32,000 bases of DNA from Candidatus Korarchaeum cryptofilum OPF8 (GCF_000019605.1 NC_010482.1:690001-722000); one strand, 5' to 3'. Shown: positions 7,101-32,000, counted from the stretch's first letter. The notes: generated by a model from the letters alone, not told the origin. Numbers and translations are program-made.

Positions 7101-8331
7101 ACTCGACCACGAATCCCTCGGATGGGTCCCTCAGTTGATTGTCCCTCGTTATCCTCTCCACTACCGATGCCAGGGCCTTCTTCAGATCCTCATAAGGCAT
7201 CTCAAGTGCTCTAAGCCTCTCAGGATCCCCTCCGGCTGCGGCGAATGACTTCGCGATAGTTAAGGCGAGCCTCTGGAGGGGAGTGAGGTCCCCTAAATCG
7301 GAGGATGGATCCAAGCTCTTCGGATACCAGGCATCGGAGAAGCTCGAAGCATCTATCGTGACCACTACCTCCCCTCTCTTAGACCCCCTCACCCTGAGCT
7401 GGCGAAAATCCGTCGCAACTTCCGGTATTCTCACTTCCCTCAGACCGGAGAGCGGTTCAAAAGGCACAGCTTTTATCTCCGGGAGTATGCCCTTCCTCTT
7501 CGCTACATGGATGAGCTTCGGGAGTATCGTGAGGGATGCGTGAGCATCTTCATCCGCTCTGTGGGGCGTGTAATCCACTTTGAACAGGAAGGAGAGGCCC
7601 TCGAGTGAGTGGCTGAGGGCCTCGGGTACCGAGATCAGTGCTAATGCGTAGGTATCTATGAACCTCACATCCCCGAAATGGACTCCCCAGGATCTCAGGA
7701 CGTCGATATCGAAGGAGTAGATGTTATGGCCCACCAAGACCCTGAACCTCCTGATCAATTTCGAGAGGAAAGCCTGGGGGATGGAACCGTAAGTCTCGGA
7801 GATTTCCTCAGGCTTTATGTTGAGTCTAGCCAGCTCCTTCCAATCGCTGCTCCTCAATGCTATTAGACCTATTTCCCTCGGCTTCTTATCGTACTCTATC
7901 TCGGTCTCTATATCCAGCCCCAGGATATCGCTCTCACGGAGGAAGTATACCCTGTCGTCAGCTATCCTCAAACGCCCTATGATAGCGAGGAATTTGTTGA
8001 ACTCCCCCCTGAAGAATAGTAGATCTATGCCTGCCGATATTAATCCCCTGTCCATGAGTAGGATACTCAGCCTTGAGCCCGATAGCAACTTGAAGACTCT
8101 ACCTACGTCTTTATGCCGAATTGCATCCTCCAGCTCGTCATTGATCCTCTTCCTGTAGTAGAGGATCGATATTAGGATGAGCAGAGCAATTATGCCCAGT
8201 ATTGAGGGGCTTAGGATGCTATTCTCAATAATAGCACCCTTCGGGAGCCCCATCCCCTCCAAGTATCGGCACCGCACTGAATTACCGGAAAATAATAAAA
8301 GATTGTGTGAAGCTGCGACGGAGGAGCCCAT
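4114..8331 (-). CDS. 1405-aa fusion: N-terminal TM helix + DnaQ-like DEDDh 3'-5' exonuclease + RecQ-family DExH helicase + ~400-aa unknown C-terminal region
   Basis: TM segment 'ILGIIALLILISILYY' (~8157-8208). Exo I is 'LGLDIETE', Exo II 'VGHNIYSFDIDVL' and Exo III 'HRADEDAHAS' (~7490-7930). RecQ motifs are 'ILPTGSGKSLIFQ', 'VISPLLALIEDH', 'LVIDEIHTLYKWGRTFRPSY', 'GFTAT', 'VATKAFGLGVDIPNVRWVVHY' and 'YYQEIGRGGRDG' (~5250-6400). An alternative start is M27 at 8253. Confidence 0.9.
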   Translation of the reverse strand: MGSSVAASHNLLLFSGNSVRCRYLEGMGLPKGAIIENSILSPSILGIIALLILISILYYRKRINDELEDAIRHKDVGRVFKLLSGSRLSILLMDRGLISAGIDLLFFRGEFNKFLAIIGRLRIADDRVYFLRESDILGLDIETEIEYDKKPREIGLIALRSSDWKELARLNIKPEEISETYGSIPQAFLSKLIRRFRVLVGHNIYSFDIDVLRSWGVHFGDVRFIDTYALALISVPEALSHSLEGLSFLFKVDYTPHRADEDAHASLTILPKLIHVAKRKGILPEIKAVPFEPLSGLREVRIPEVATDFRQLRVRGSKRGEVVVTIDASSFSDAWYPKSLDPSSDLGDLTPLQRLALTIAKSFAAAGGDPERLRALEMPYEDLKKALASVVERITRDNQLRDPSEGFVVEYRYLKDLLGRMRGRAESKIVLRGAYLLRAYYQDYSSLLKQLSATFSKVELETPFDLAVDVEYRRPEVKRTLYLVKDGIDKSSRHSNLFGGLLAAVIQRGRSLVLVSNSAEEIVSREVSYRMRARAEVHRSGDLIRTLERVNKFASMGYNIVLYSTRTLVRSGEEVMLKSLVEVLRLSGGTCIIVNADRELIRRLNLSDFVEEVEVRPLAPPISMSYATFPSLKEAIKELEEIVRDVWGFSLRPYQRRLVARLLMPYTYQGLLLDRPFSIAILPTGSGKSLIFQSVALFLRRKIGGTTVVISPLLALIEDHLNSLLSRGVRACAITSMARDRLDEYIRGLARGGYDIVYITPEQLEKEEVRRSLERADINYLVIDEIHTLYKWGRTFRPSYEYLAQYIKRSREYGLWLPLAGFTATLPGKGLEEVIKVLTGDEKFNMEEIDFNTDFDPSKPDTEQVKVFKGPAIRDNIIIDVVEAPSGQERLYKLLNVVSELSRWADSFSGSSPWLGIIYTGFVRSTKEHENAPYIADFLSENLGRNVIYFHGQMSDSEKKDVLNRIYRVSRGEAKEPRIVVATKAFGLGVDIPNVRWVVHYMMPESIEDYYQEIGRGGRDGKICRAVMLYSPGYDYERRLALIKRTLLDPMLVTKIYSAISRADEGASVPMILLAPLLLWKYDESDLMDSLRSQGRLPEFLENAIERALNTLSNLNILNYDIVREKFVLVDRRSFKGPLYPINGKGLTGDAQAVGRGDLYLSESGDIIVSEHRKQNWIPVTNVPTQAIKVSSIKRVPIEEVAAFISDDQFHTLFSLYLMNEFSSLLLKASREERDSIAKRRIEEYLSSSIEELYRGMVRGLREQVIEDHREFLKYYNPLMRNGYIHYRAAYINKEYLCELLSFVALLYMVENGVPGMKLAFLVPHGYRKMILSKLEEKMKNYGLPLMEPVVLNIKREEVRHLDGEAMREKLAGAEAIFFLATHPTLHRVANMLRGKVFRIYVMKR

Positions 8332-17547: not shown

Positions 17548-17894
17548 GTGGCAGCATAGAAATTGCCCACAGCTCAATGCACACGAGATGGAACGTATAG
17601 TAAATGTTAGTTATCCGACAGCGGCCGAATCCAGAGGAAGATGGAACTAGTTAAGCGGATTTCATCAGCTAAGCGATAAAGCTATCAGAAGCTTGGTAAA
17701 CTAGGAGTGTGAGAGCTCCCTGTAGAATGCTATCATTTTCCTCACAGCTTCATAGCAGTCCCCCTCCTTGTACAGGGAGAGGGCTTCATCCAGCAGGGCT
17801 TGAAGCTCAGCAGCCTTATCCTTGCTCAGCTTTCCGGCTGTGATACCCTCACCCTTATAATACAACCTCTCTGAGATTTTTAAAAATAAAGCCT

Positions 17895-17915
17895 TGTTAA
17901 ACTGATTGTTTAACA
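17895..17915. repeat. perfect 8-bp inverted repeat (5-nt loop) at the GC/AT compositional boundary
   Basis: 'TGTTAAAC tgatt GTTTAACA' sits immediately next to the A/T tract 'tttttaaaaataaa' (17876-17890). Confidence 0.75.
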
Positions 17916-18050
17916 GAAAGACCTTTCATGAGTGGTTAGCGGCCCAGAATCTGATCTTATAACAGCTGCGTAGCCCCAACACTAGGATATCCTCGAACTA
18001 ATATTTGAGCGAAATCCTTATAACTAACTAGCCGCTTTTATTACTTCTTG

Positions 18051-18431
18051 ATGATTATACTAACCCATGGAAAATATAAGGAAAATGCTGGATTTATCTT
18101 CTTTGGAAAAGATAAGGAGTTAAATTTGGTGAGGGAGGGAGACAGAAGGGAGGAGGTATGCACTCCTAATTTCCTAAGTACTCTTTTAGAATGTATTTCT
18201 TTAGATTATATTTCGACCTCTAAGTTAGAAAAAATAATTGAAATAAGTGGGGAGAAAATAAAAGAAAGATCAATAAAAATAGAAAATCGAGTAAAGAAGA
18301 TACATAAAAGAGTGAAAATAAACAATAATGGGAGGATCCAGGGCTATCAGATTGATATCGCCCCTGTATGGCATAAAGGATTATCCACTAACGAGAGGGC
18401 ATGCGGGAGGTGGAAATATGGAAATATTTAA
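18051..18431 (+). CDS. hypothetical small protein, possible first gene of the AT-rich operon
   Basis: A ~126-codon open frame in ~32% GC DNA, where stops are frequent. It overlaps the next start by 14 nt. It is Lys/Glu/Ile-rich, and no motif was recognised. Confidence 0.3.
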   Translation: MIILTHGKYKENAGFIFFGKDKELNLVREGDRREEVCTPNFLSTLLECISLDYISTSKLEKIIEISGEKIKERSIKIENRVKKIHKRVKINNNGRIQGYQIDIAPVWHKGLSTNERACGRWKYGNI

Positions 18432-20520
18432 AAGAATAATAGCACTATTTAGGAAAATTTCTCGCATCTTTCAAAAGAAGGAGTTATATATAGGGGATCT
18501 ATCCAGGGAGCAAAGAAGCGAACCTTCTACTGCCGTAGAGAACATAATAGATAAGGAAGAAGCTCGGGGAGAATTGGAAAAAGAGATTGAGGGTAAGTCT
18601 ATAAGAGAGCTAGAAGAGAGAGTAGAACAGAGTATTCCTGAAGGAAGGAGAAGGAAAAAGCCTCAAAAAAAGAGAGCTCCTACTGAACAGGATATAAAGA
18701 CAAGAAGGACTGTTTATAAAGAACAGAGGGTACACGCGATAGGAAAAGAGGTGAAACTAGGCAAAAAGAGATCTACAGGGAGAGCTAAGAGGCCAAAGTC
18801 ATTAGAGGCAGTTCCAAAGGAAAGAAGAGAGGAAAAATCGGCTCAATCCTCTATAAGAGTGAGAGCGCCATTTGTTGAAATTGATCTTGACAGGGCTAAG
18901 GTTTTTCTCGTGATCCCAAAACAAAGCTTAACGGTAGAAAATTCCTCTAAAAAACAATTGAGTTATAGGGTATCCTTAGATAACGAAGTAGAAAGACCGC
19001 TTCCAGTTGGAATTACCGGTAATGAAGAATATCCAGAAACAGAAGAAGAAAGGATTGAAATAGAAAAACCTATAAAAAATTTTAAGGTTGCCTATCCAGA
19101 AGAGCTTGAAGGTAGGAATTATACTTACGAACATAGGGATGATTCTATTTATACTTTCATCGCTGTTGGAGATGGTCTAGGCAGAATGCACTATCTATAC
19201 GAAGATGGGAACATCAATCCACTTCCTCAAAGAGAAATATGGGTCCTTCTTGAGGAGGATTTTGAGCCCGAGATCGAACCGATTTTAGAGGAGGATAGAT
19301 GGATCTGGGAAAAATATAGGCCATTATATATCGATTTGAGAGATAAAAGTGAATTAGTTATAATAAATAGAAAGTTAAATAAAAGAGAAGCTATACCTTG
19401 TAAATCTACTTTTTCCATTGAAGGCGAAGAGATTATTTATGATGATTTCAGCGATCAATCTCCTATTTTTACGGGTAACAGTATTAAAATAAAAGCTCCA
19501 ACAATAAATGAAGAAGGATGGGTCGTTTATGTTCAAAACAAACAAGATGGTTATAAGATTGTTTCCGATAATTGGTTAGGGAAGGATCCCCTTGAGCTGA
19601 GATTTGACCGTGATCTACCCTGTGAATGCGGGGAATTCCAGGTAGATATCTGTGGGCAAGATGGGAAATCTGTTAACACACTGTTCTTCAGGTATATTCC
19701 ATCTTTGCGATTAAATTATTCGAGGGAACTCATCATCCCAGATCCCAAGAAGGGCCATAAAACAGAGAGAGTTGAGATTTCACTTCCATATGCAGAATAT
19801 TTTGAAATAGAAACTGAAGAGCAAATAAAACCCACCCCGAAAGGATATGAGATCATTTTACCACCGAAAAGAGATGTCTTTAGGTTCTCCATCTTCAAGA
19901 AGAATAAGCCGGAAACTAAAGTAAGCTTCAGAGTAACGGTTCCAAGATTAAAATGGAAGACCTCAAGACATATAGATTGGAGGGATACTCCGCTACGTTT
20001 AGAGAGGGAAGAACTGCTCACTAGCGAAGAACTCTACCTCTATATCAATACGAATAGTTTTCCTAACTATAATATTTCGGCGATACTCGAGGCAAATAAC
20101 CAGAAACTGCAGGAATCAAAGTTTGTTAGAAAGAGAAATATTTACAGCATCTTATTAAACCAATTTTATGATACTATTAAGGAAAGCAAAGGTAGGATTG
20201 TGCTTAAGATTAAAATCCTTAAAAACGAAAGGATCATAGGTGAAAATATTCCCGTTCTATATCTCTCTGAAAAGATAACGCTTAGACCTATCCCGCGAGG
20301 ATCGAGAAAGAGTATGAGACCGATTGTAAGGTGCGGCATGGGCATGAGGGAAGGAAGGGGCTTTAGTAAAGAAGAAATAATCCAGGCTGGGATTAGAATA
20401 GAAGATGCTAAACGATTGAACATTCCGTATGATAAGCATAGGAAGTCAGCACATCCCAAAAATATCGAGATTTTAAGATCGTTAGTTGAAGGTGATAATT
20501 ATGCCGATAGATCCGATTAA
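18418..20520 (+). CDS. ~700-aa orphan protein: basic/acidic disordered N-terminus, beta-rich middle, C-terminal ribosomal-protein-L13e-like module
   Basis: ATG 18418 is preceded by 'GGAGGTGG' 5 nt upstream. The 2.1-kb frame is uninterrupted in AT-rich DNA. The first ~150 aa are K/R/E-rich. The C-terminus reads 'RPIVRCGMGMREGRGFSKEEIIQAGIRIEDAKRLNIPYDKHRKSAHPKNIEILRSL'. The stop lies 20 nt inside the downstream helicase gene. Confidence 0.8.
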   Translation: MEIFKRIIALFRKISRIFQKKELYIGDLSREQRSEPSTAVENIIDKEEARGELEKEIEGKSIRELEERVEQSIPEGRRRKKPQKKRAPTEQDIKTRRTVYKEQRVHAIGKEVKLGKKRSTGRAKRPKSLEAVPKERREEKSAQSSIRVRAPFVEIDLDRAKVFLVIPKQSLTVENSSKKQLSYRVSLDNEVERPLPVGITGNEEYPETEEERIEIEKPIKNFKVAYPEELEGRNYTYEHRDDSIYTFIAVGDGLGRMHYLYEDGNINPLPQREIWVLLEEDFEPEIEPILEEDRWIWEKYRPLYIDLRDKSELVIINRKLNKREAIPCKSTFSIEGEEIIYDDFSDQSPIFTGNSIKIKAPTINEEGWVVYVQNKQDGYKIVSDNWLGKDPLELRFDRDLPCECGEFQVDICGQDGKSVNTLFFRYIPSLRLNYSRELIIPDPKKGHKTERVEISLPYAEYFEIETEEQIKPTPKGYEIILPPKRDVFRFSIFKKNKPETKVSFRVTVPRLKWKTSRHIDWRDTPLRLEREELLTSEELYLYINTNSFPNYNISAILEANNQKLQESKFVRKRNIYSILLNQFYDTIKESKGRIVLKIKILKNERIIGENIPVLYLSEKITLRPIPRGSRKSMRPIVRCGMGMREGRGFSKEEIIQAGIRIEDAKRLNIPYDKHRKSAHPKNIEILRSLVEGDNYADRSD
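20314..20490 (+). other. L13e-like domain (C-terminal ~60 aa of the 18418..20520 product)
   Basis: It matches the conserved core of eukaryotic/archaeal L13e as I recall it: human RPL13 '..[62 protein letters not shown]'. The shared elements are RPIVRC, GRGFS-EE, AGI, I--D-(R/H)R and N---L. Confidence 0.7.
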
Positions 20521-23500
20521 GGTTACACAGAATATTCGCGAGAGCTATATCCGATATTTGACGAGTACTTTCCACCTTAGAGACGAACAATTTCGAAGTA
20601 AATTCCGGCAAGAAGTTGAGGCTTTTTCCTTTATAAAGGGCCCCATTTTAGAGGCAACACCACCTTTCGAAAGAGGATGTCATCTTAAGGATTTAATTAG
20701 AGAAGGGTTGCTCAGCGATAAACTAGAGAGTTTTATTTTTGATGCGATGGATTATTTGCGCAATAATCCACTATACTTACACCAGGAGAAAGCTATTAGA
20801 AAGATAATTAAAGGTAGAAATGTGCTCATTGCCTCCGGTACAAGTAGTGGGAAGACGGAGTGCTTCCTGATACCAATTTATAATCATCTTTTAAGAGAAT
20901 ATGAGGAAGGAAGGCTCACACCAGGAGTAAGGGCTCTTTTGCTCTATCCTATGAATGCATTAGCTAACGATCAGCTGAGAAAGCTGAGAAAAATAGCGAG
21001 AGTGATGGAAGAGAAAATTCCCGAAGTTAAAATAACCTTCGGTAGATATGTCGGCGACACTCCTGAAGCTAAGGGAGATGGATTAGAGAAGTTCAAATTG
21101 ATGAATCCCAAGGAGAAGCCCGTAGAGAGCGAACTTCTTTCGAGAGAAGAGATGAGAGAAAATCCACCTCATATACTAATAACGAATTACGCAATGCTCG
21201 AATATTTACTTTTGAGACCAAAAGACTCGCCTTTCTTTGATGGAGAATACGCGAGAAACTGGAAATTCTTAGTTCTCGATGAAGCCCATATCTATAGCGG
21301 GGCAACGGGAATTGAAATGGCTATGCTCATCCGTCGCTTGAAAGATAGAGTCTGTAAAAATATGGAAGGTGACTTGCAGTGCATCGCGGCAAGCGCAACT
21401 CTTGTTAGGGGGGAGGAGGATTTTGAAAAAGTAGCAGACTTTGCAACTAAGCTTTTTGGAGAAAGATTTGAATGGGATCCAGAGGATAGTGAAAGACAGG
21501 ACATAATTAAGGGAGAAAGAATCAAAATAGAGGGCTCGAAGGCTGAATTTAAGGCATCACTCAATCTATACTTAGAACTAGAAGATAGAATAATTCAAGA
21601 TACTTCCTCTCCTACTCTGGAACAACTGTACAAGACTTGTGAAGAAAATGGTATTCCTAAAAGTATTTTGGATAATTCGAGGGATATTTGCGACAATAAT
21701 CCAAAGAGATTCCTTTACGAAGTTCTTTCAAAAGATGAGATGGCAATAAAACTGAAGTCTCTGCTAGAAGGAGGAGCGAAGGGGATTGATGAATGCGCTA
21801 AATATCTTTTAGAAAAAGATGAGCCCTCAAAGGAAGAATATAGCCAGATAATTAGCCTTATTAATGTATTAGTGTGGGCACGCCCAGATGAGGATTCCTT
21901 ACCTCTTTTACCGGCTCGTTACCATCTATTTGTTCGCGCACCGGAGGGGGTCTTTATATCCTTTTACCCTGAACCGAGGATATTCCTAGAGAGGAGGGAG
22001 CTGACGGATGATGGGTATCCCGTCTTTGAACTCGCTTCTTGCCGACGCTGTGGGCAGGAATATTTAGTCGGAGAGGTCGTAGAGGGTAAATTAAAGCATT
22101 CTTTTGCTGAGGTAGATACTCAGAGGAAGAATAGGTATTTCATGTTATGGGGGGAAGATATTAAACTAAAGGAAGACGAAGATCAGGAAGTAGCAGTTCC
22201 TGAAGAAATTGCTAAAGAAGGAGATGTATGGAAGCTGTGCGTAAAGTGTGGGTCGATATGGAAAGATAAACCTACCTGTAATTGTGACCATGAGAGAGAT
22301 TCCGTAAGGACATTGATCGAAGTAACTCCCAAGGACACAGTTCTTAATAAATGCTACCTATGCGGATTACGCTCCATAGATATTGTTCGCGAATTCATTT
22401 TCCAGAGAGATGCTCCTGCAGCAGTATTAACTACAGCGTTGTACCAAAATCTTCCGAGGGATCACGCAAGGGAGAGAAAAATACTCATCTTCTCGGATAG
22501 TAGACAAGATGCCGCATTTTTTGCTCCTTATCTGGAGTTCACTTATAAAAGGATCTTATTCAGGCGTTTGATAGTTGAAGCCATAAAAGGAAATCGATTA
22601 GAAGATTACAGGCTTGAATCCTTATGTGAGGATGTTCTGCGGCTCGGTGAAAAAAGTAAAGTTTTTGATCCAGCGAAGGATGAGAAAGAAAGGAAAAAAG
22701 AGGTCTGGAAATGGATAATTCAAGAGTTCTGCGGAATCTGGGATAGGAGAAATTCTCTAGAAGGTGTTGGGCTGGTATCATTTATCCTGATATTTCCTGA
22801 AAACTGGAGGCCCATCAAAGAGCTACAAGAACCGCCCTGGAATCTTACAGAGGACGAAGCGAGAGCATTATATCAAACATTGCTCAACTCCATGCGCTTC
22901 AATATGGCTATTACTTTTCCTGATGGACTGAATTCCCAAGATGAGTTCTTTAGCCCAAGGAATAGAGAGTACAAATTCAGAGGGGAAGGCTCCGATACCG
23001 GAAGAGGGATATACTCCTTCATACCATCTCAAGGCAGGACTAATGCAAGACTCGAATATTTGGAAAAGTTATATAAGAAGATTACGGGAAAGGAAGATGA
23101 AAACAATGAATGTAGGGAGCTATTAGGAAAAATATGGGAGGATTTGAGAGATAACTGGGTTGATAGGGGTATACAGAGATTTAGCAACTCGAGAGATGGT
23201 GTCCTTTACAAGCTTGATTATAGATATTGGAGAATAATCCAGCCGAACACCTCTTGGTTCATTTGCGATCGCTGCGGAGTAATTGTACCCTCAAGCGTGC
23301 GGGGAGTCTGCCCGACATTCGGCTGTAATGGAAATCTCATTCCAATAGATAACCAAAAATTTGAAGATCTTGAAAGAAACCATTACCGCTATCTATATAC
23401 TCACTTGGAACCCATAGTAATGGCTCCCCATGAGCATACAGCACAGCTCACCACCGATCATGCCTCAAACATTCAGCAAAAGTTTATAAGAGGGGATATC

Positions 23501-25333
23501 AATATCTTGAGTTGCTCAACTACATTCGAGCTAGGAGTGGATATTGGAGAATTAGAAGCTATCTTTTTACGTAATGTCCCACCAGAACCCTCAAACTATA
23601 TTCAGCGCGCAGGAAGAGCAGGAAGAAGACTCGGTACCATAGGATTTATTCTGACTTTCGCCCAACTTCGTTCTCATGACCTTGCATACTTTAAAGAGCC
23701 AGAAAAAATGATTGAGGGAAGAATAAAGCCACCTATCATTGAACTCAAGAATGAGAAGATAATTTCCCGTCATCTCTACTCCATTGCAATTGCGGATTTC
23801 TTCAGAAAATTTAGCGATTATTTCGGGGATGCGGACTCGTTTTTCAGATTTGAAGAAGGTATTTCAGGCACAGAGAGAATAAAGGAGTATCTTCTCACAA
23901 AGCCCGAATCCATCCTGAAATCATTAAAAAGAGTCATACCTGAGGACTTGCAGAAAGTTTTTGGAGTTGATGATTGGAAATGGGTTGATGGTCTTGTGGG
24001 TAAAGAAGGTGTTCTTACAAAAGCAGACGAGAAAATAAGGGACGAATTTACCAGGCTTAAGGAATTCTATAGATTAAAGGAGGAAGAATGGAATAGTGCC
24101 CAAGATCAGCAAAAAAGAAACAAAATACATGCAGATATGAACTGGGCATACAAAAGAAAGGAGACTATTAAGAGAAAACAGCTCATAGATTTCTTAGCAT
24201 CTCATGCAGTTATTCCCAAGTATGGTTTTCCAGTGGATGTTGTTGAATTGGACATCCTATCACACCAGGACGCTGCTAAAAATATCCAGCTAGAAAGAGA
24301 CTTGAGCATAGCTATTTCAGAATTCGCGCCAGGGAGTCAGGTAGTTGCAAATGGGTATATTTGGGAGAGTGAAGGGTTGAAAGTCGTGAGAAATAGGACA
24401 TGGCCGATTTACTGGTATGCTATCTGCAGTGAATGCAATAAATTTTTCATAAAAAGTGGAACAATAGAAGAAAACCCACCCTCCTTCTCATGCGATGTTC
24501 ATGGACCCATCTCACGGGGGGATATACATAGATTTGTCACGCCAATATTTGGCTTTGTGACCTCTAAGGATTTTGAGCCAAAGAAACCGGGTGAATCGAG
24601 ACCAAAGCATGAGTTTACCACAAGACCATACTTCTTCAGTTATGAGAAACCAGAGGAAAGAATATTCACTATTGGCAGATTTAAGATTAAATGTAAGTAC
24701 TCTTCCGATGGAGAATTAGCCGTTATCTGTAAGGGGAAGAAGGGTGGATTTTGGATATGTTTTGATTGCGGTGCGGCTTTCCCGGAGAGAAAAAGAAAGC
24801 ATAAAACGCCTTACGGGATGGACTGCACATCACCTTTGAAAGGCCCGTTTCACCTTGGACATACTTTTAAGACTGACGTGCTTTCTATTTCATTTGAAGA
24901 GCCAAATATAAATGAAAGTTATATTAGAGAGATATTTAGATCAAAGTCTATTAAGATAAATAATAAGTTTGTAGAAAGCTTCTGGCTATCCCTCTTATAT
25001 GCAGTACTAGAGGGCGCAAGCCAGGCCCTCGGGATAAAAAGAGAGGATCTGAATGGATGCCTCCATTCATCTGAGGGCAGAATTATGCTAATATTGTTTG
25101 ATAATGTTCCTGGTGGAGCTGGGCATGTAAAACGAATAATGAGCGAGAGAAACTTGTATGAGGTTCTCAAGGGTGCCCTAGCCCGAGTCAAGAATTGCGC
25201 ATGTGGGCTTGAGACCAGTTGTTATGGATGCCTCCGAAGTTATGAGAATCAATTCTGTCATGACCTACTGAAGAGAGGCGTTGTCTGGGAGTTTCTTGAA
25301 AGAAATCTGGAGGGGGATCAGTTACGTAGATAG
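20501..25333 (+). CDS. ~1610-aa DEAH-box SF2 helicase with multiple zinc ribbons and C-terminal DUF1998 (MrfA-type Zn-binding) domain; DrmA+DrmB / DruE-like
   Basis: ATG 20501 follows a 'GGTGA' SD. Motif I is 'ASGTSSGKTE' (~20831), Ia 'YPMNALANDQ', II 'VLDEAH' (~21275), III 'ASATL', IV-like 'IFSDSRQDAAF' (~22490), 'HTAQL..STTFELGVDIGELEAIF' and VI 'QRAGRAGRR'. CxxC pairs lie at ~22039, 22237, 22354, 23266/23311, 24424 and 24760. The C-terminus 'LFDNVPGGAGH...CACGLETSCYGCLRSYENQFCHDLLKRG' is the DUF1998 signature. Confidence 0.9.
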   Translation: MPIDPIKVTQNIRESYIRYLTSTFHLRDEQFRSKFRQEVEAFSFIKGPILEATPPFERGCHLKDLIREGLLSDKLESFIFDAMDYLRNNPLYLHQEKAIRKIIKGRNVLIASGTSSGKTECFLIPIYNHLLREYEEGRLTPGVRALLLYPMNALANDQLRKLRKIARVMEEKIPEVKITFGRYVGDTPEAKGDGLEKFKLMNPKEKPVESELLSREEMRENPPHILITNYAMLEYLLLRPKDSPFFDGEYARNWKFLVLDEAHIYSGATGIEMAMLIRRLKDRVCKNMEGDLQCIAASATLVRGEEDFEKVADFATKLFGERFEWDPEDSERQDIIKGERIKIEGSKAEFKASLNLYLELEDRIIQDTSSPTLEQLYKTCEENGIPKSILDNSRDICDNNPKRFLYEVLSKDEMAIKLKSLLEGGAKGIDECAKYLLEKDEPSKEEYSQIISLINVLVWARPDEDSLPLLPARYHLFVRAPEGVFISFYPEPRIFLERRELTDDGYPVFELASCRRCGQEYLVGEVVEGKLKHSFAEVDTQRKNRYFMLWGEDIKLKEDEDQEVAVPEEIAKEGDVWKLCVKCGSIWKDKPTCNCDHERDSVRTLIEVTPKDTVLNKCYLCGLRSIDIVREFIFQRDAPAAVLTTALYQNLPRDHARERKILIFSDSRQDAAFFAPYLEFTYKRILFRRLIVEAIKGNRLEDYRLESLCEDVLRLGEKSKVFDPAKDEKERKKEVWKWIIQEFCGIWDRRNSLEGVGLVSFILIFPENWRPIKELQEPPWNLTEDEARALYQTLLNSMRFNMAITFPDGLNSQDEFFSPRNREYKFRGEGSDTGRGIYSFIPSQGRTNARLEYLEKLYKKITGKEDENNECRELLGKIWEDLRDNWVDRGIQRFSNSRDGVLYKLDYRYWRIIQPNTSWFICDRCGVIVPSSVRGVCPTFGCNGNLIPIDNQKFEDLERNHYRYLYTHLEPIVMAPHEHTAQLTTDHASNIQQKFIRGDINILSCSTTFELGVDIGELEAIFLRNVPPEPSNYIQRAGRAGRRLGTIGFILTFAQLRSHDLAYFKEPEKMIEGRIKPPIIELKNEKIISRHLYSIAIADFFRKFSDYFGDADSFFRFEEGISGTERIKEYLLTKPESILKSLKRVIPEDLQKVFGVDDWKWVDGLVGKEGVLTKADEKIRDEFTRLKEFYRLKEEEWNSAQDQQKRNKIHADMNWAYKRKETIKRKQLIDFLASHAVIPKYGFPVDVVELDILSHQDAAKNIQLERDLSIAISEFAPGSQVVANGYIWESEGLKVVRNRTWPIYWYAICSECNKFFIKSGTIEENPPSFSCDVHGPISRGDIHRFVTPIFGFVTSKDFEPKKPGESRPKHEFTTRPYFFSYEKPEERIFTIGRFKIKCKYSSDGELAVICKGKKGGFWICFDCGAAFPERKRKHKTPYGMDCTSPLKGPFHLGHTFKTDVLSISFEEPNINESYIREIFRSKSIKINNKFVESFWLSLLYAVLEGASQALGIKREDLNGCLHSSEGRIMLILFDNVPGGAGHVKRIMSERNLYEVLKGALARVKNCACGLETSCYGCLRSYENQFCHDLLKRGVVWEFLERNLEGDQLRR

Positions 25334-25492: not shown

Positions 25493-26740
25493 TCAAGTTG
25501 ATCCGTAAGAGAGGCTAGCGAGCCTCTTCAGTAAATCCGGAGACTTCGTGTGTATGGGCTTCACATCCTTGGGCCTCACTACGCTCATTATACGCGTCAG
25601 CTGATAGGGATAGTAGTGGCCCGATGCCCTCATCCTGTAGTGCTGCACCCCCATGGCGGAGAGCCAGTTAGCTATCACATCGTATTCCAACGCCTCCTCT
25701 ACCTCAGGCTCCGGCTCAGAGAGTACCGCCACGGGGCTCCTCATAGCAGGGCGGAAGCTCGGATCCCTCAGTAAATCTACTATCTCCCTGTGGGAGGTAA
25801 GTATGAAAGAGTTCCCTCCTATCTCCTCAAGGGAAACCTTCTCCCTCATCGTCGGATATCTCACGAAATCCTCAACAAGATTTATCTCAACGGGGGGCTC
25901 TGGTATCCTCTCCAGGAGCTTAGCTATTTGAGCCGATGCAACGTAGCAATCGAATCCGAGCTCCTTCGCTATCTCGAGAATGAGGTAAGCGTACTCGAAG
26001 TCGAGACCATGGAGTGTGAATAGCATGGGAGCTTGAGAGGATTTTTGGGAGATAGCGATCCTCCTTATCATATTTGCGACATCATCCGGTGAGATAGGTG
26101 TCCTATTCGACCCTACATTCGTCCCCTCTATTATGAGAGTGTCCACTCTCACATCCGGATTCTCCCCCAAGTAAGTGAGGAGATCCTCGCCTATTAGCTC
26201 GAGGAACCTCTCCTCCCCGAGGAAGCCGTCGACTCTGAAGTCCCCTGTGTAAAGAATCGTCCCCTCTCTGCCGAAGTACAGGAATGCGTATGCTGGATAG
26301 GCGCTGTGGGATACTGGAAGTGGAATCACACCGTTTTCATCCTCTTCTAAAGGTTTTATCTCCCTTATCTCCAGGAAATATCTCCCTGCAACTAGCTGGA
26401 GCCATGAGGAGGAGTTCTCCCATCTCTCCTTCATATCCTCGTATACCGAGAGGCTCGGCAGGTATACGCGAGTCTCCGAGGGTATGTTGTGCAGGAGCCC
26501 CAGATGATCGAGGTGCATGTGCGATATGTATATGCCGCTGGCGTCCATGTACCATTCCTGCTTCGGGATGACCCCGAGTCTCCTGAGCTCAGCTATCCCC
26601 TGAGGCGTTACCTGCATAGAGTAATACCTGCTCATTATATCGAATCTGATCCCCTGATCGAATACAAGAGTTTTATCTCCATCCCTTATCCTTACAAAAT
26701 TCCCACCTATGCTGTTCTCCCCGGACAGTATCTCTATCAA
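25493..26740 (-). CDS. metallo-beta-lactamase-fold nuclease, RNase J-like (MBL/beta-CASP)
   Basis: The 'HMHLDHLG' (HxHxDH) motif is present. The RNase J-like N-terminus is 'IEILSGENSIGGNFVRIRDGDKTLVFDQG'. Also present are 'TLIIEGTNVG' and 'RASGHYYP'. The preferred start is TTG 26740, which overlaps the SNF2 stop and has GGAGG 7 nt upstream. The ORF-track ATG at 26836 adds a non-homologous 32-aa extension lying inside the SNF2 gene. Confidence 0.75.
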   Translation of the reverse strand: MIEILSGENSIGGNFVRIRDGDKTLVFDQGIRFDIMSRYYSMQVTPQGIAELRRLGVIPKQEWYMDASGIYISHMHLDHLGLLHNIPSETRVYLPSLSVYEDMKERWENSSSWLQLVAGRYFLEIREIKPLEEDENGVIPLPVSHSAYPAYAFLYFGREGTILYTGDFRVDGFLGEERFLELIGEDLLTYLGENPDVRVDTLIIEGTNVGSNRTPISPDDVANMIRRIAISQKSSQAPMLFTLHGLDFEYAYLILEIAKELGFDCYVASAQIAKLLERIPEPPVEINLVEDFVRYPTMREKVSLEEIGGNSFILTSHREIVDLLRDPSFRPAMRSPVAVLSEPEPEVEEALEYDVIANWLSAMGVQHYRMRASGHYYPYQLTRIMSVVRPKDVKPIHTKSPDLLKRLASLSYGST

Positions 26741-29673
26741 GGCTTCCCCTCCTTCGGCCTCAGGATGTACCTCCTCTCCACCCTCTCGAATGCCTCCCAG
26801 TTCATGGTGCTGACCGGATCCCTGAACCTGATCCATTCGGGATCGGTCCCTATATTGTAAACTATGTAGAGCCAGTACCTTTCCCTCTCCCTCTCAGCGA
26901 GCTCTGCTTCGTAAGAAGTCAGCTCCCCGTATACTTCAGGCCCCAGATGGCCCTTCACCTCTATTATCCTAACTTCCTTCGTGGATGGATCGACGCTCCT
27001 TATATCGTAGTGCTCCTCCTCCGGGACTACCTCGGGGATCCTCCCCTCATCCCTCTCCACCTTCATGACGATCTCAAGGGCCTTCTTCTCTACCTCCTTT
27101 TTGACTTCCTCCGGGATATCTAAGCTTCCCTTAGGGGGCTCGATGAACTGTATGGATCCCAGATCGTTGGAAGTCCCTATATCGAGGTCCTCAGCTTTCA
27201 TCCAGTTATCCGGACCCCTGAGTCCCTCCTCCTGCAACTTCCTGGAGTAGTTGATGATCGGTGAGAGGAGTTCCCTACAAGATTTCTGGAATTCATTTAT
27301 CACTATGGCCCTCAATTCCACGGAGATATCCGAGTTAGGTATCTCGGCTATTCCAACTAAATTCGAGATCGCTGATGAGATTAAGTCAATGAGTTCGGAT
27401 CCTCTTATGACCTTCTTTTTCTTTAGATCTATCCCGATGGGCTCCTTGTAGAGCAAACCCCAGCTCCTCCTATCCCTTATCTCCACTAGTTTTATGAGCA
27501 CCCTCCCATTTGGCCCGTAGGCCACTAGATTCACCGGAGATGAACTCTTACACTCCCCGAGAAGCATGCCATAGATTGTCCTTAAGCTTGTTACCGCTAC
27601 GGGCATCTCCGATCCCCTGATAACCTTTAGCTCATCCCCTTCCGAGAGAACCCTCAACCCGAGGAAGCCGGATGCTGACTTGAGGAGCTTCTTCATCGAA
27701 TCCATCAAGTCATGATGACTCTCGAATCCGATCTGGGCTATCGTATTTATTATCGCTTCCCTAGTTTTTTGAGCGTACAGCACCCCCTTGGACTTCAGTT
27801 CCCTCTCTATCTCCTGCTTGGCAGCTATTATGGACTCTATTAGGTCGCTCAGGCCCTTCTCATCTTTCCTCAGATAGGTCTCTATTAATTTAGCTTCAGT
27901 AACCTTGAAGAACCTTTTCTTCCCCTTCTCACTCTTCGTCACGACGTAAGGAGGCAGCTTCGTGAGATCCTCCGTTTCCGTATAGAGGATCACTTCCTGC
28001 CCGGTTATAGGCCTCGCGCCCAAATCCGCTCTCTTCAGGTTGAGGAGCTTCTCGTAGATGGATCTAAGCGCAGTGCTATCGGCTTTATTCGCCATGAAGA
28101 GGGTGTATATCTCAACCTCCCTCCTCTGCCCGAGCCTCCACACCCTGCCTATCCTCTGCTCCAGTTTTATCAGGCTCCAGGGGACCTCGTAATTTATCAG
28201 GATATGAGCTACCTGCAGGTTCAGGCCCTCAGCCGCGACATCCGTAGCTATGAGAACTCTAGCCCTAGGATCCCTCTCAAAAGCTCTTCTTATTTCCATG
28301 AATTTCTTCTCATCAGCCGTTTCATCCGAACTGAGTCTGAGGATCGAGCCTTCAGGCCACCCCTCATTCAGGAGCTTTTTCATTATGTAGTCGAGCGTGT
28401 CCTTATACTCGGTGAAGACTATGACCTTCGAATCCTCCTTCACCTCATCCAGCAGGGAAATTAGAGCTTTTAGTTTACTGTCTCCCTCCCTCATTATATC
28501 CCTCGCCATCTCAACGAGCTCCCTCATCTCCTCCCTATCCCTCTCGGACATGAGGGAGGATGTGGCATCCAGGAACTCCTCCATGATCTCCTCGGGATCT
28601 CTTCCCGGATACTCCTGATCCTCATATCCGGTTCCCAAGAGCGTCTCCACGCTGTGCATCAGTTCCTCCAAATTCTCGTGGGCTGTCCTCCTCAACAGCA
28701 GTCTCTCGAGAGTCGTCACAGCGGCATAGGGGCTGGAGGATGCCCTCTTGAATATGAGAACTAATAGGAGGGGGAGTGCCTTCTTGCTGAGCTCCTCCTT
28801 CTCATAGGCGAGATCTCTGAGTTTTGACTTCAGGAAATTGAGAAGTCTATTTATGAACTCCTCTTCATCCTTCCTCACCTTTATAACTGTCGCGTAAAAT
28901 CTGGCCATTGGGAATATCTCTTTTCCCTCGTATATCTTGTTTATCTCCTCCTTCGTCCTCCTGAAGATTATAGCTCCATGCGTCAGCTCATAGAACTGCT
29001 TCCTATCCAACGATCTCCAATCCTCCAGGTAGGGATCAAGGAGCCGAAGCCTCGATATGTAATCTGCGGGATCCCCTCTGTGAGGTGTCGCTGAGAGGAA
29101 TATCACATTCCTTCTGGGCTTTCTCTCTATAAGCTCCCTTCCTACCTCTTTGAATCTCTTCGTCTTCATCCCAAGCTTATGGGCTTCATCTACAATTATT
29201 ATATCCCATGGGACATCCAGAACTTCTTTTATCCTTTTCTCCCTTTTTATGAAGTCCATTGATGAGAGATAGTATCCATCAGGGAACCCCTGCTTTTTTA
29301 GATACTCTATGTTATCCCTCTCTATCTGATTAACTTTACCTATGCCCATCCTCTCGAGCTCCTTCCTCCACTGCGGTATGAGGACCCTGGGGACTATTAT
29401 CAACGCCTTGGATACTCTACCCACTCCTTCCATATATCTGGAGATCGCTAGGGCCGTTATCGTCTTTCCAAGCCCTATCTCATCCCCTATGAGGACTCTG
29501 ACGGGGTTCCTGAGAGCGAGTCTAGCGAGGACTTCGCACTGATGGAGGTAGTGCTGAGGGGGGTCCTCCGCGGAGGTCCGGAGATACGGGTATATCAGGG
29601 GGTGATAGCCCAGCTCATTCAAGAATCCTGAGATGAAGCCGATTACCCCATCCTTGAGTTTCATTACTATCAC
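26737..29673 (-). CDS. SNF2-family helicase with C-terminal DUF3883-like / PD-(D/E)xK-like domain
   Basis: Motif I is 'LIGDEIGLGKTI', II 'IIVDEAHKLG' and III 'FLSATP'. V is 'LIATDVAAEGLNLQ' and VI 'PWSLIKLEQRIGRVWRLGQ'. The C-terminus reads 'HYDIRSVDPSTKEVRIIEVKGH....YWLYIVYNI' (D...EVK, ~26790-27010). The track start is GTG 29673, and ATG at 29664 (MKLKDG) is equally plausible. Confidence 0.9.
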   Translation of the reverse strand: MIVMKLKDGVIGFISGFLNELGYHPLIYPYLRTSAEDPPQHYLHQCEVLARLALRNPVRVLIGDEIGLGKTITALAISRYMEGVGRVSKALIIVPRVLIPQWRKELERMGIGKVNQIERDNIEYLKKQGFPDGYYLSSMDFIKREKRIKEVLDVPWDIIIVDEAHKLGMKTKRFKEVGRELIERKPRRNVIFLSATPHRGDPADYISRLRLLDPYLEDWRSLDRKQFYELTHGAIIFRRTKEEINKIYEGKEIFPMARFYATVIKVRKDEEEFINRLLNFLKSKLRDLAYEKEELSKKALPLLLVLIFKRASSSPYAAVTTLERLLLRRTAHENLEELMHSVETLLGTGYEDQEYPGRDPEEIMEEFLDATSSLMSERDREEMRELVEMARDIMREGDSKLKALISLLDEVKEDSKVIVFTEYKDTLDYIMKKLLNEGWPEGSILRLSSDETADEKKFMEIRRAFERDPRARVLIATDVAAEGLNLQVAHILINYEVPWSLIKLEQRIGRVWRLGQRREVEIYTLFMANKADSTALRSIYEKLLNLKRADLGARPITGQEVILYTETEDLTKLPPYVVTKSEKGKKRFFKVTEAKLIETYLRKDEKGLSDLIESIIAAKQEIERELKSKGVLYAQKTREAIINTIAQIGFESHHDLMDSMKKLLKSASGFLGLRVLSEGDELKVIRGSEMPVAVTSLRTIYGMLLGECKSSSPVNLVAYGPNGRVLIKLVEIRDRRSWGLLYKEPIGIDLKKKKVIRGSELIDLISSAISNLVGIAEIPNSDISVELRAIVINEFQKSCRELLSPIINYSRKLQEEGLRGPDNWMKAEDLDIGTSNDLGSIQFIEPPKGSLDIPEEVKKEVEKKALEIVMKVERDEGRIPEVVPEEEHYDIRSVDPSTKEVRIIEVKGHLGPEVYGELTSYEAELAERERERYWLYIVYNIGTDPEWIRFRDPVSTMNWEAFERVERRYILRPKEGKP
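26738..26752 (-). promoter_or_regulatory. translational-coupling junction (SD + overlapping stop/start)
   Basis: The reverse strand reads 'GGAGGggaagccTTGA'. The SNF2 TGA (26739..26737) overlaps the nuclease TTG (26740..26738) by 2 nt, and GGAGG sits at 26752..26748. Confidence 0.5.
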
Positions 29674-29683
29674 GAATTTGAGG

Positions 29684-29698
29684 AAAAATAACTTAAAA
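29684..29698 (-). promoter_or_regulatory. candidate TATA box for the SNF2 gene (short or no leader)
   Basis: The reverse strand reads 'TTTTAAGTTATTTTT', centred ~27 nt upstream of ATG 29664, in the 118-bp gap after the upstream gene. Confidence 0.3.
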
Positions 29699-29791
29699 GT
29701 TTAGCTGTCCATGGGAAGTGTTGCTATCCTCATTACCAGCGATGAGCTCTCCTCTGGTAGTTAAAGGGAATCGCACATTTTCTAGATGTTT

Positions 29792-32000
29792 TCAGCCTTT
29801 ATGACCCTTCCTCCTCACTAGGAGTTTGAAGATAGCTCTTCCATTCAGTTGAGATAGCACCGCTATTTTCTGGTCATCCAACACCACATGATTCTCGAGC
29901 TCTATGCTTCCATTTAAATGCGTCCTCAATCCGAGCTGGCTCGCTTGCCTTGATATTTCATCTAACTTCTGGACTAGGAACCTCGCTATATCTATGCTCA
30001 CCCCCTCCATTGAGAAGCGTATATTCCCCCCGAACTCAGCATCGATATTCACTTTAGCCTTCATGCCCAGCTTGCTCACATTTTCTATCGCTATTTTCAG
30101 CGAAATTAGATCGGAACTACTTATTGATAGGAGCTTCTCTCCAGAGATGCTGCTATCTATCTTATCTACGTCTCTCTCCTCCTCAGGGCTCAAGATGACT
30201 ATGGAGACGGATTCCTCCTTGAGCAGCCCGTCCGAGCTCACTGCCCTTATCTTCAGGGGAAACCTCCCCACCCTCCTGGGCGTTACCTCCCATGAGACCT
30301 TCATCGGAGGCCTGCCTTTCCCCTGACTGAGCTCCCCTTCCTCTACCTGGAGCTTTATCTCCTCCGAATAATCTTCTACGGGTTCTATGGATATCTCGAA
30401 TACTGCCTTCTCTCCCTGGTTCAATTCCACATGCTTCGGTTTCACATCGAGAACGAAGCCTCTCTTCAGCTCCTCCTCCCTCTTCTCTATCACCCCGGCC
30501 CTCAAGACCTCTTCCCATCCTTCCTGCTTCACCAAGTCCTCGAGAGGTATTCTCTCCCCTCCAATCTCTACTTCGTACCAGATCCTCTTCGTTACTCCGT
30601 TCTTCCGCACACCGCTTTTGGAGAGGAGCTCCTCCTTCATCTGCTCCGCAGCCCTCTTCCAGGGGAGTATCACTGCTGTATCCCTCAATCCCTTCGGCCT
30701 CTCAGCGCCTGAGGATCCGATTCTCTTCCAGTAGAGTCCCCCCTCTATCTTAATCCCTATATCCAGTTTATCCAGGCCCTCGAGGAGGGCTTCCTCAACC
30801 GCTTTTTGCGTAGTGAAGGGAGCCGCTGTATTCGTGTAGAATACATCCATGATTTCCTTGAACTCGAACTGCCTGTCTCCATTCACTAAATCCCATCCGA
30901 GATTGTCCTTAAGAAAATCGGAGATATCCTTGAATTCCAGTTTTGTCCTGAGCTTCGGTCCAGTTCTCGGGTCTTTGAGCGCCGCTTCCACCTGCGATAT
31001 GAGGTAGGAGGAAGGGCTCGCTTCCACGATCTTTATATCGTTCCCCTCCTTCCCCTTGTATGGGTAAGCGACCTTCGTTAGGAGGGAGAGTATCTGCTGC
31101 ATCAAGTATCCTTTGTTTTCATTAATGTAACTCTCCAACTTATTACTCTGGATCTTTATTATGTCCTTATCCGTGTAGTACTCGCTCAGGTTTTCCTTTA
31201 TTTCTTCAGCTGCTTCTATCTTCGCTACATATCTGAGCTCATCCTCTAAGTTCGATTTCGATGGGAATACTACTGCTATCGTATTTGCATATGTTCTCTT
31301 TCCTCCTCCGGGTTCTCTCAGTATTATATTCCTCAGCTCCTCCTCACTAACATCCGGTTTTACCATTACGACTAACCTCAACGATTTCTCGTCCCTCAGT
31401 TCTCTCCCTATGTCATCTCCATATCCCAGTGTAATCACGTTATTACTGTCAAATACCTCGCCTGATGGCTTCTCTCCCTTCTTGCGGGTTCCGGATGTGT
31501 CTCCTTTAACATGACTTTTTACATAATTGACCAGCTTCCTGTGGAGGTCGAGGATCGCGCCTCTCAGCATCTCATCAGCTCTCCTCTCTACGTACTCCAA
31601 GACCGATGGATAGGGCGTGAACCAGAACCTGTTCTCCTCCCCGGTGAAGTGGGGGAGTTTGACCAGCATCTCCTCTACCGTGGCCTCTATATCTGGTGGC
31701 TGAAGATCGCTTGATGAAAAGCTCTCGGGATCGTAGGTCATCAAAGCTATGTCCTTCAGATCTGGGAATACTTTTAGAGGCTCTTTGAATGTTTCATAGG
31801 TGTAGGTCTTCAATAATACGACTGTAGCTATCTTGAGGGCGAGCGCTGGCTTTGAGCAGTTCGCGATAGAGCCGAGGCTTCCATCCTCGGATACTATGTC
31901 CCTGCTCGCGACATCCCTGAAATTCTTGTAGCTCTCTGTGAGGACCAGGTTCCTTATATCCTTATCCCTCAGGTCTATGTGCCACGGCATTATGAACTCC
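29792..32000 (-). CDS. large protein (>=732 aa; frame still open at window edge), tentatively the non-ATPase part of a DUF499/BrxC-like protein plus an Ig-like beta-sandwich region
   Basis: The 2.2-kb frame is uninterrupted, and the three codons upstream of ATG 31990 (EFI) contain no stop. 'RFWFTPYPSVLEYVERRA' and 'GGGKRTYANTIAVVFPSK...LRYVAKIEAAEEI' resemble conserved DUF499 segments as I remember them. No Walker A is present in the visible part. Residues ~520-620 ('FVLDVKPKHVELNQGEKAVFEISIEP...FPLKIRAVS') look like a beta-sandwich. Confidence 0.5.
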   Translation of the reverse strand, partial: EFIMPWHIDLRDKDIRNLVLTESYKNFRDVASRDIVSEDGSLGSIANCSKPALALKIATVVLLKTYTYETFKEPLKVFPDLKDIALMTYDPESFSSSDLQPPDIEATVEEMLVKLPHFTGEENRFWFTPYPSVLEYVERRADEMLRGAILDLHRKLVNYVKSHVKGDTSGTRKKGEKPSGEVFDSNNVITLGYGDDIGRELRDEKSLRLVVMVKPDVSEEELRNIILREPGGGKRTYANTIAVVFPSKSNLEDELRYVAKIEAAEEIKENLSEYYTDKDIIKIQSNKLESYINENKGYLMQQILSLLTKVAYPYKGKEGNDIKIVEASPSSYLISQVEAALKDPRTGPKLRTKLEFKDISDFLKDNLGWDLVNGDRQFEFKEIMDVFYTNTAAPFTTQKAVEEALLEGLDKLDIGIKIEGGLYWKRIGSSGAERPKGLRDTAVILPWKRAAEQMKEELLSKSGVRKNGVTKRIWYEVEIGGERIPLEDLVKQEGWEEVLRAGVIEKREEELKRGFVLDVKPKHVELNQGEKAVFEISIEPVEDYSEEIKLQVEEGELSQGKGRPPMKVSWEVTPRRVGRFPLKIRAVSSDGLLKEESVSIVILSPEEERDVDKIDSSISGEKLLSISSSDLISLKIAIENVSKLGMKAKVNIDAEFGGNIRFSMEGVSIDIARFLVQKLDEISRQASQLGLRTHLNGSIELENHVVLDDQKIAVLSQLNGRAIFKLLVRRKGHKG

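Follow-up and report, generated by a model that had tools for sequence, protein, structure and literature searches.

Organization of the locus

We analyzed a 32,000-nucleotide (nt) stretch of the genome of Candidatus Korarchaeum cryptofilum OPF8 (GCF_000019605.1, NC_010482.1:690001-722000; hereafter the window), whose minus strand carries three co-directional open reading frames (ORFs) between positions 25493 and 32000. These ORFs, at 29792-32000, 26737-29673, and 25493-26740, encode a DUF499 ATPase, an SNF2 helicase with a C-terminal nuclease domain, and a metallo-β-lactamase (MBL)/β-CASP protein with a predicted RNase J-like fold, respectively, in the arrangement described by the original prediction, which had been made from the sequence alone. 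The region is the 3′ two-thirds of Hma, a restriction-modification-like system of a helicase (HmaA), a methylase (HmaB), and an ATPase (HmaC), because contigs 98-99% identical to the window run on into the N-terminus of the DUF499 protein and a DUF1156 protein of 986 amino acids (aa). Hma was defined in PADLOC (Payne et al. 2021; PMC8565338) and has since been renamed the Type-1 DUF499-centred BREX (bacteriophage exclusion)-Related (BR) system (Rakesh & Krishnan, NAR 2026; PMC12839542). All core features of HmaA, HmaB, and HmaC were found, namely co-directional genes for a DUF1156 N6-methyltransferase, a DUF499 AAA+ ATPase, and an SNF2 helicase with a DUF3883/NOV_C PD-(D/E)xK domain. Unlike published Hma, which has three genes only, the locus contains a fourth gene for the RNase J-like MBL/β-CASP protein, apparently coupled in translation to the helicase gene, and 65 of the 74 related loci that could be assessed share this gene. 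We therefore classify the locus as a variant form of Hma in which an extra gene is conserved.

The gene order past the window end was completed from the 98-99% identical contigs. Four contigs, namely L001 (the same contig as L062), L029, L030, and L031, extend past position 32000 and share 97.8-98.9% identity with the window; two of them, L001 and L029 (98.4-98.9%), carry the locus beyond the end of the window. In L029 the full operon consists of genes for the DUF1156 methyltransferase (986 aa), the DUF499 ATPase (1120 aa), the SNF2/NOV_C helicase (978 aa), and the MBL protein, in this order. Both DUF499 and DUF1156 were also found in all of the related loci whose upstream sequence exceeds 7 kb (34 of 34); the original prediction had named DUF499, a DUF1156 methyltransferase, and a DUF3883 helicase as typical companions in defense-island surveys. 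The SNF2 gene thus sits in an Hma context and not in one of chromatin or DNA repair.

The DUF499 gene (hmaC; 29792-32000, minus strand) is represented in the window by the C-terminal 735 aa of an AAA+/STAND-type, BrxC-like ATPase. This fragment matches PF04465 (E = 3.1e-288) over profile positions 279-1022 of 1024, which shows that the window ends within the gene and that the ATG at 31990 encodes an internal methionine; the N-terminal ~385 aa of the ~1120-aa protein, including the Walker A motif, fall past the end. The 1120-aa protein of the nearly identical contigs scored 1338 bits against the Pfam DUF499 model. No PADLOC model matched the C-terminal fragment of the window, but HmaC was matched (5.2e-46) by the complete protein of L029, a contig 98.9% identical to the window. 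The DUF499 similarity that the original prediction ascribed to this ORF was confirmed. Because its P-loop (SLFGGGKTH) already lies at about residue 85, an N-terminal HEPN domain could not be accommodated, and by its sequence the protein is a "canonical" DUF499 ATPase, unlike those of the HEPN-bearing Type-1 BR systems. In two related loci (L098 and L106) no stop codon interrupts the DUF499 frame over more than 1000 codons before the P-loop, which suggests that methyltransferase and ATPase are fused into one polypeptide there.

The 986-aa DUF1156 protein is encoded directly upstream of DUF499 in the nearly identical contigs, and that of L029 matched HmaB of PADLOC (4e-43). A methyltransferase gene had been expected beyond position 32000, and it is indeed found intact there, in L029 and not in the window itself. 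In L001 the gene contains a perfect 121-nt tandem duplication (2269-2510, equivalent to 3627-3868 of L062) that shifts the frame and leaves ORFs of 613 and 424 aa. As the unit is single-copy in the near-identical L029, L030, and L031, and the gene of L029 is intact, the duplication is either an assembly artefact or a strain-specific inactivation of the methylase.

The helicase-nuclease and the preceding spacer

The helicase gene (hmaA; 26737-29673, minus strand) has Pfam matches to SNF2-rel_dom, ResIII, Helicase_C, and NOV_C. Its product is 978 aa if translation begins at the GTG at 29673, but since homologs begin with M-x-L-x-E-A-V, the ATG at 29664 is the more probable start. Residues 861-948 (26830-27093) form the NOV_C/DUF3883 domain of restriction-endonuclease fold (PF13020, E = 5.6e-20), a predicted nuclease with the catalytic residues D890 and E905-V906-K907. 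In an alignment of 20 homologs (50-99% identity), the Walker A motif (GLGKT) and the DExH motif were conserved, E887, H888, D890, V906, K907, and G908 were invariant, and E905 was conserved in at least 90%. The D...EVK ending of DUF3883 type that the original prediction had read from this gene is thus a conserved feature of the family.

When compared with PADLOC models, the helicase matched both HmaA (4.9e-55) and DrmD of DISARM (5.2e-64), and both matches span the helicase core only; DrmD and BrxHI/II of BREX (about 1e-56) are the best helicase-core models in PADLOC and NCBIfam. However, DrmD scored 232.8 bits against a cutoff of 610, and the partner genes in the operon are DUF499 and DUF1156. 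Neither DrmA/B/C nor PglZ nor BrxA/B was found among the genes of the extended locus, including the L029 ORFs. We thus rejected DISARM, since DrmD is below the cutoff and Drm partner proteins are absent, and also BREX proper (types 1-6), since PglZ is absent and the ATPase is DUF499 and not BrxC/DUF6079.

A 118-nt spacer (29674-29791) separates the DUF499 and helicase ORFs. The region 29665-29791 contains, on the minus strand, a TATA-like A/T-rich TTTTAA (29692-29697), which precedes the ATG at 29664 by about 28 nt. As this spacing is typical for the distance from an archaeal TATA element to the start, the motif may serve as an internal promoter that would give a near-leaderless transcript of hmaA and the MBL gene. 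In most loci of the clade, by contrast with both the window and published Hma, a conserved ORF of ~135-150 aa lies between DUF499 and the helicase (for example, 6578-7026 in L011 and 8557-8991 in L110). The ~140-aa product contains motifs including FxWSSTP, YNRLLIYACVRP, WDAHYWASRFRELWW, and KAFKLFF, and matched no Pfam family, including DUF3780 of the Type-2 BR systems. The ORF is missing in the Korarchaeum lineage and in a few other loci, which have a spacer of 120-170 nt instead.

An RNase J-like gene adjoins the helicase gene

The fourth gene of the operon (25493-26740, minus strand) encodes a 415-aa MBL/β-CASP protein. Its TTG start (26740-26738) overlaps the TGA stop of the helicase gene (26739-26737) as TTGA, and a Shine-Dalgarno-like GGAGG (26748-26752), still within the 3′ end of hmaA, precedes the TTG by 7 nt, exactly as originally predicted. 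The same GGAGG/TTGA arrangement is found in an 85%-identical locus (L002). The TTG start is supported because conservation among the homologs begins there, the annotated length of an 86%-identical homolog (P0002) is likewise 415 aa, and the MBL gene of 16 other loci starts about -11 to +14 nt from the helicase stop. A 99%-identical database record (P0001) uses an upstream ATG (26836), which gives 447 aa, and an exact-sequence look-up of the 447-aa ORF of the window returned no match. This arrangement suggests that translation of the MBL gene is driven by the Shine-Dalgarno motif and coupled to that of the helicase gene.

Across 24 homologs (50-86% identity), MBL motifs 1-4 (D28; H74-x-H76-x-D78-H79; H145; D167) and β-CASP motifs A, B, and C (E205, H375, and H397) were invariant. 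In Pfam the protein matched only generic Lactamase_B models. Against the NCBIfam RNase J model TIGR00649 it gave E = 3.3e-10 with 39 bits, far below the cutoff of 400, and against the RNase J1 model 16.8 bits versus a cutoff of 820. No PADLOC model matched it. An AlphaFold2 model (pLDDT 84, pTM 0.85) was compared with known structures by Foldseek, and the top 44 matches were all RNase J, bacterial and archaeal, or EF2904 (TM 0.65-0.73, E down to 8e-22, 14-20% identity); next came CPSF-73-type enzymes and Cas14 of type VII CRISPR (9j9e). In a search of Protein Data Bank (PDB) sequences with the MBL profile, EF2904 (2az4; 9.6e-19) was followed by RNase J (4e-8). EF2904, a structural-genomics protein of ~430 aa from Enterococcus faecalis with the same motifs, is therefore the closest solved relative by sequence profile.

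The protein shares with RNase J and its archaeal form, aRNase J, the two-domain MBL and β-CASP fold, the catalytic motifs, and the S-G-H sequence of motif B, and like aRNase J it is devoid of the bacterial C-terminal domain. It differs from RNase J in its low identity, its sub-cutoff score, and its rare, patchy, and defense-linked occurrence, RNase J being a conserved housekeeping gene. Accordingly, membership in the RNase J family was rejected on score, distribution, and context, although the catalytic residues are present. The RNase J-like character assigned to the gene by the original prediction thus holds for the fold, at a considerable distance in sequence. Judged by motifs and model, the product is predicted to be an RNase J-type nuclease with an intact active site. 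Since the MBL fold is common to many phosphodiesterases and Pfam gives nothing more specific than Lactamase_B, the protein might instead hydrolyze a small molecule or a signaling nucleotide. We consider this very improbable, because a complete β-CASP insertion whose motifs A, B, and C are invariant is found specifically in nucleic acid-processing MBLs, the structural alignment of the model with RNase J spans the whole protein (TM about 0.7), and the operon has no cyclase or other signal-generating gene.

Conservation of the MBL gene beside Hma genes

Conservation was examined in two independent samples. In sample (a), species-representative genomes were scanned with the MBL profile, which gave 19 close loci, and in sample (b), metagenome contigs were scanned with the helicase alignment alone, which gave 80 loci with 34-98% helicase identity, 6 of which were not assessable. 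In sample (a), 17 of the 19 loci have the order DUF1156, DUF499, SNF2/NOV_C, and MBL, with the MBL gene reduced to a truncated remnant in two of the 17 (L020 and L021). In sample (b), the succession of a helicase gene and, immediately downstream, an MBL gene on which the original prediction turned recurs in 63 of the 74 assessable loci; in two more the MBL gene lies elsewhere in the locus, and nine are without it. The gene is thus kept in ~88% of loci (65/74), down to about 35-40% helicase identity, and when both samples were collapsed at 95% nucleotide identity, it was present in 66 of 74 assessable clusters.

Some loci deviate in informative ways. In L055 (4340-7845), a 483-aa protein of unknown type and a 682-aa Argonaute with a Piwi domain are embedded between helicase and MBL genes, and in L078 the MBL gene has moved to the opposite end of the operon with the linkage retained. 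The MBL gene is split into two ORFs in L038. In L037 (11065-14832), where it is absent, the helicase gene is followed by a gene for a 1255-aa protein without a Pfam match.

The two remaining loci of sample (a) are orphan copies among housekeeping genes, outside any Hma operon, whose products are about 50% identical to the window protein. One (L015, 4263-5492) lies in a Ferroglobus metagenome-assembled genome (MAG) between genes for an AsnC regulator and ThiC. The other (L017, 9527-11185), in a Nezhaarchaeales MAG, shares its ORF with an N-terminal MFS transporter fragment and looks like a remnant of a rearrangement. These copies raise the question of whether the MBL gene is an autonomous single-gene defense or toxin module that rides beside Hma and functions independently of the Hma proteins. 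Hma systems often host embedded or adjacent independent defense genes (bioRxiv 10.1101/2024.01.29.577857), the core is intact without the MBL gene in nine of 74 loci and in a Sulfolobales genome (L110), and an OLD-family ABC ATPase-TOPRIM nuclease takes the MBL position in L067 (13049-15184). However, the gene is retained as described above, and its divergence tracks the core genes almost perfectly, which would not be seen with swapped-in cargo: identity of the MBL protein to that of the window correlates with SNF2 identity at r = 0.98 (n = 65) and with DUF499 identity at r = 0.99 (n = 50), a pattern that fits a module inherited together and not repeatedly exchanged. The position is also fixed, with the MBL start overlapping or abutting the helicase stop, no close relative in either sample lies beside another defense system without Hma, and PADLOC has no model for the MBL protein. 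Taking these points together, we regard independence from Hma as improbable.

The MBL family is rare, phylogenetically patchy, and mostly found in TACK archaea: a search of 1.84 billion 50%-identity representatives gave only 65 clusters at E ≤ 1e-30, and members occur in Korarchaeia, Bathyarchaeia, Nitrososphaerales, Methanomethylicia, Thermofilaceae, Desulfurococcaceae, Ferroglobus, and some thermophilic bacterial MAGs. TACK archaea, including Korarchaeota, have been reported to possess aCPSF1, aCPSF2, and the exosome, and to be without aRNase J (PMC3553952), so that the MBL protein is not a displaced housekeeping enzyme. It might still be supposed to be an ordinary RNase J of RNA decay that stands beside a defense operon by chance, as its fold is RNase J-like and homologs are labeled "ribonuclease J" in some databases. 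The score of 39 bits against the 400-bit cutoff, the rare and patchy distribution, and the synteny with Hma, which is conserved across phyla, leave this reading effectively refuted, and the original prediction, which would have fallen with a housekeeping RNase J in an unconserved neighborhood, stands in this respect.

Among plasmid DUF499 systems, the Thermus and Halorussus records, two examined of 140 matching, contained no MBL gene; this supports the clade specificity of the gene within a sample of two. Conversely, a plasmid search with the MBL protein gave only relatives of 21-28% identity, two of which were examined and had no Hma genes nearby; they were set aside in judging function. These two, on a Sphingomonas plasmid (L025) and a Cereibacter plasmid (L026), are full-length relatives (21-24% identity) whose small operons are surrounded by genes for transposases, recombinases, and toxin-antitoxin systems; one of the two lies beside a metallophosphoesterase gene. 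Unlike the window gene, the distant bacterial EF2904-like relatives that were examined thus occupy transposon-rich or accessory contexts without Hma genes, and the wider EF2904-like family may be accessory or mobile too. One contig classified as viral (L109; IMG/VR UViG_3300002966_000953) contains the 3′ end of the helicase gene and the MBL gene, followed by genes that match phage proteins in PHROGs only weakly (best match, a minor tail protein at 9e-22); the contig may span the edge of a provirus, or it may have been classified wrongly.

RNA or DNA as substrate

Several features of the MBL protein bear on its substrate. Motif C is a histidine (H397), which in β-CASP enzymes is linked with RNA-processing members, whereas valine is linked with DNA-processing ones (PMC3095777). 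The context of motif B, R-A-S-G-H, aligns with H-V-S-G-H of archaeal RNase J, and two homologs (P0036 and P0048) match PF07521 RMMBL, the "RNA specificity domain", above the cutoff. Because the fold, motif C, the S-G-H of motif B, the RMMBL matches, and the recurrent pairing of such systems with RNases all favor RNA, the most likely activity would be that of an RNase J-like, 5′-end-dependent exo/endonuclease on RNA. Single-stranded DNA (ssDNA) is a plausible additional substrate.

A different enzyme can be envisaged, namely a 5′-to-3′ DNA exonuclease of SNM1/Apollo- or RecJ-like type, which would resect the 5′-phosphate DNA ends left by the PD-(D/E)xK nuclease of HmaA while the SNF2 helicase unwinds, and thereby make the cleavage of invader DNA irreversible. 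PD-(D/E)xK nucleases leave 5′-phosphate ends, and RNase J-type pockets bind such ends. The MBL gene is coupled to that of a DNA helicase-nuclease and not to that of the ATPase, RNase J degrades ssDNA in vitro (PMC10470531; also PMC6447361), and both sequence and profile searches reach Artemis and Apollo. In contrast, motif C is not the valine of DNA-specific β-CASP enzymes, homologs match the RMMBL domain, and in structure as well as profile comparisons RNase J matches better than SNM1/Artemis by many orders of magnitude. We therefore judge a dedicated DNA-resecting enzyme to be unlikely, though a more serious contender than independence from Hma.

Comparison with known accessory nucleases

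The accessory nucleases published for Hma/BR systems are of the HNH, PD-(D/E)xK, HKD, TOPRIM/OLD, HEPN, PIN, and Schlafen types, and β-CASP is not among them. In the literature that was searched (the Hma papers, the 2026 BREX/BR survey, the HEPN survey, and full-text searches), no β-CASP/MBL nuclease was found with Hma/BR, although the 2011 defense-island survey may mention one. The outcome agrees with the original prediction, in which an RNase J-type MBL gene was said to fall outside the known versions. The closest parallel in prokaryotic immunity is Cas14, the β-CASP effector of type VII CRISPR-Cas (PMC13069675), to which the MBL protein is predicted to be similar by the structural match to 9j9e. 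Cas14 is, however, much larger and guided by CRISPR RNA and Cascade, whereas the partners here are an ATPase, a methyltransferase, and a helicase, with no CRISPR components.

Proposed role of the MBL protein

How the MBL protein would act can be outlined from what is known of the families. In such systems the methylase marks self and the SNF2-fused restriction endonuclease restricts unmodified DNA (PMC12839542, PMC3710099, PMC11232893). By analogy, HmaB, a DUF1156 N6-adenine methyltransferase, would mark host DNA, and the DUF499 ATPase, acting in sensing and assembly as family knowledge suggests, would recognize and cut unmodified invader DNA together with the SNF2 helicase-nuclease. For HmaA there is experimental support in Halomonas, where the SNF2-fused nuclease confers phage defense (PMC11232893); this bacterial HmaA is the only one assayed. 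The MBL protein, whose amount would be tied to that of the helicase by TTGA-coupled translation, would then cut single-stranded nucleic acid that is exposed or produced by the helicase-nuclease. Its targets may be invader transcripts or the RNA of R-loops, or it may provide backup RNase activity comparable to that of the HEPN-DUF499 fusions of other Type-1 BR systems.

The original prediction proposed that the MBL gene would supply an effector nuclease to a helicase/ATPase sensing module. The nuclease-like nature of the product, with intact motifs, was upheld, with the correction that it would not be the only effector: HmaA already carries a conserved PD-(D/E)xK nuclease, so that the MBL protein is better seen as a second or auxiliary nuclease. 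The Hma literature likewise regards the PD-(D/E)xK nuclease of HmaA as the primary effector (PMC11232893, PMC12839542). The reading we favor as the most likely, with moderate confidence, is thus that the MBL protein is a second nuclease effector coupled to the Hma helicase-nuclease and acting on exposed single strands, probably of RNA. RNase J has precedents both with SF2 helicases and in immunity: aRNase J associates with ASH-Ski2 (bioRxiv 10.1101/699629), and RNase J2 is required for type III-A CRISPR immunity (PMC6447361). In addition, HEPN RNase modules recur in Type-1 BR systems (PMC12839542).

Several points weigh against this reading. The MBL gene is dispensable for operon retention, as shown by the nine loci and L110 that keep the operon without it, and the orphan copies in L015 and L017 demonstrate that it can also occur apart from Hma. 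A role in defense is suggested by context, and a physical partnership with HmaA by translational coupling alone. The methyltransferase gene lies outside the window sequence, which stops inside DUF499. The comparison with HEPN is non-discriminating: the P-loop is at about residue 80-90 in every DUF499 of the clade, whether the MBL gene is present or absent, so that HEPN is missing in the MBL-less loci as well. As to the substrate, the assignment rests on correlates: a change of valine to histidine at motif C left the selectivity of SNM1A unaltered (PMC7458816), RNase J enzymes also cut ssDNA in vitro as noted above, and the MBL profile weakly matches the DNA nucleases Artemis and Apollo (about 1e-3).

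A bolder proposal, which we put forward tentatively and consider possible rather than probable, is that a deep Hma clade, mostly of thermophilic archaea, has recruited an RNase J-type enzyme that docks on the SNF2 helicase-nuclease to form a helicase-fed "immune degradosome" destroying invader RNA and/or unwound DNA.

Other modules in the window

A second defense module (18328-25333, plus strand) converges on the Hma operon. It encodes a DEAD/DEAH helicase of 1615 aa, which ends in an MrfA Zn-binding domain (DUF1998) and matched DruE of Druantia in PADLOC (4.9e-188); the helicase gene is preceded by an overlapping gene for a 730-aa protein whose C-terminus resembles ribosomal protein L13e (NCBIfam, 4.7e-14) and which matched no defense model. 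The G + C content of this block is 37-42%, compared with about 50% in the flanks. The related contig L031 lacks window positions 16455-23675, and therefore the DruE-like module is variable between strains.

A gene on the minus strand (4114-8331) encodes a 1405-aa protein with an RNase_T-type exonuclease and a DpdF-like DEAD helicase (PADLOC DpdF, 3.2e-64) and may be the third defense gene of the window. Between these modules lie a TumE-family toxin gene (13398-13769, plus strand; Pfam, 8.4e-20) and short ORFs with partial matches to pyruvate:ferredoxin oxidoreductase and ABC transporters (9951-10355, 14073-14699, and 16131-17547), and the presence of both suggests a degraded, island-like region.

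Implications

The Hma core is already known, and the conserved, helicase-coupled fourth gene for an MBL/β-CASP protein is the new part. Although accessory nucleases are a recognized theme of Hma/BR systems, whose mechanism is still largely inferred, the gene would add a new nuclease class, β-CASP, to the accessory effectors of BREX-related immunity. It also provides a handle on what the helicase-nuclease yields, either ssDNA with 5′-phosphate ends or exposed RNA, and the proteins, being thermostable and compact, are suited to biochemical and structural work. For annotation, the finding means that proteins of TACK MAGs listed as "ribonuclease J" or "MBL fold metallo-hydrolase" are often probable defense components and not RNA-decay enzymes. 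If the "immune degradosome" proves true, it would be the first case of a β-CASP nuclease in methylation-based, non-CRISPR defense and the functional counterpart of the HEPN RNase that is fused to DUF499 in the bacterial versions.

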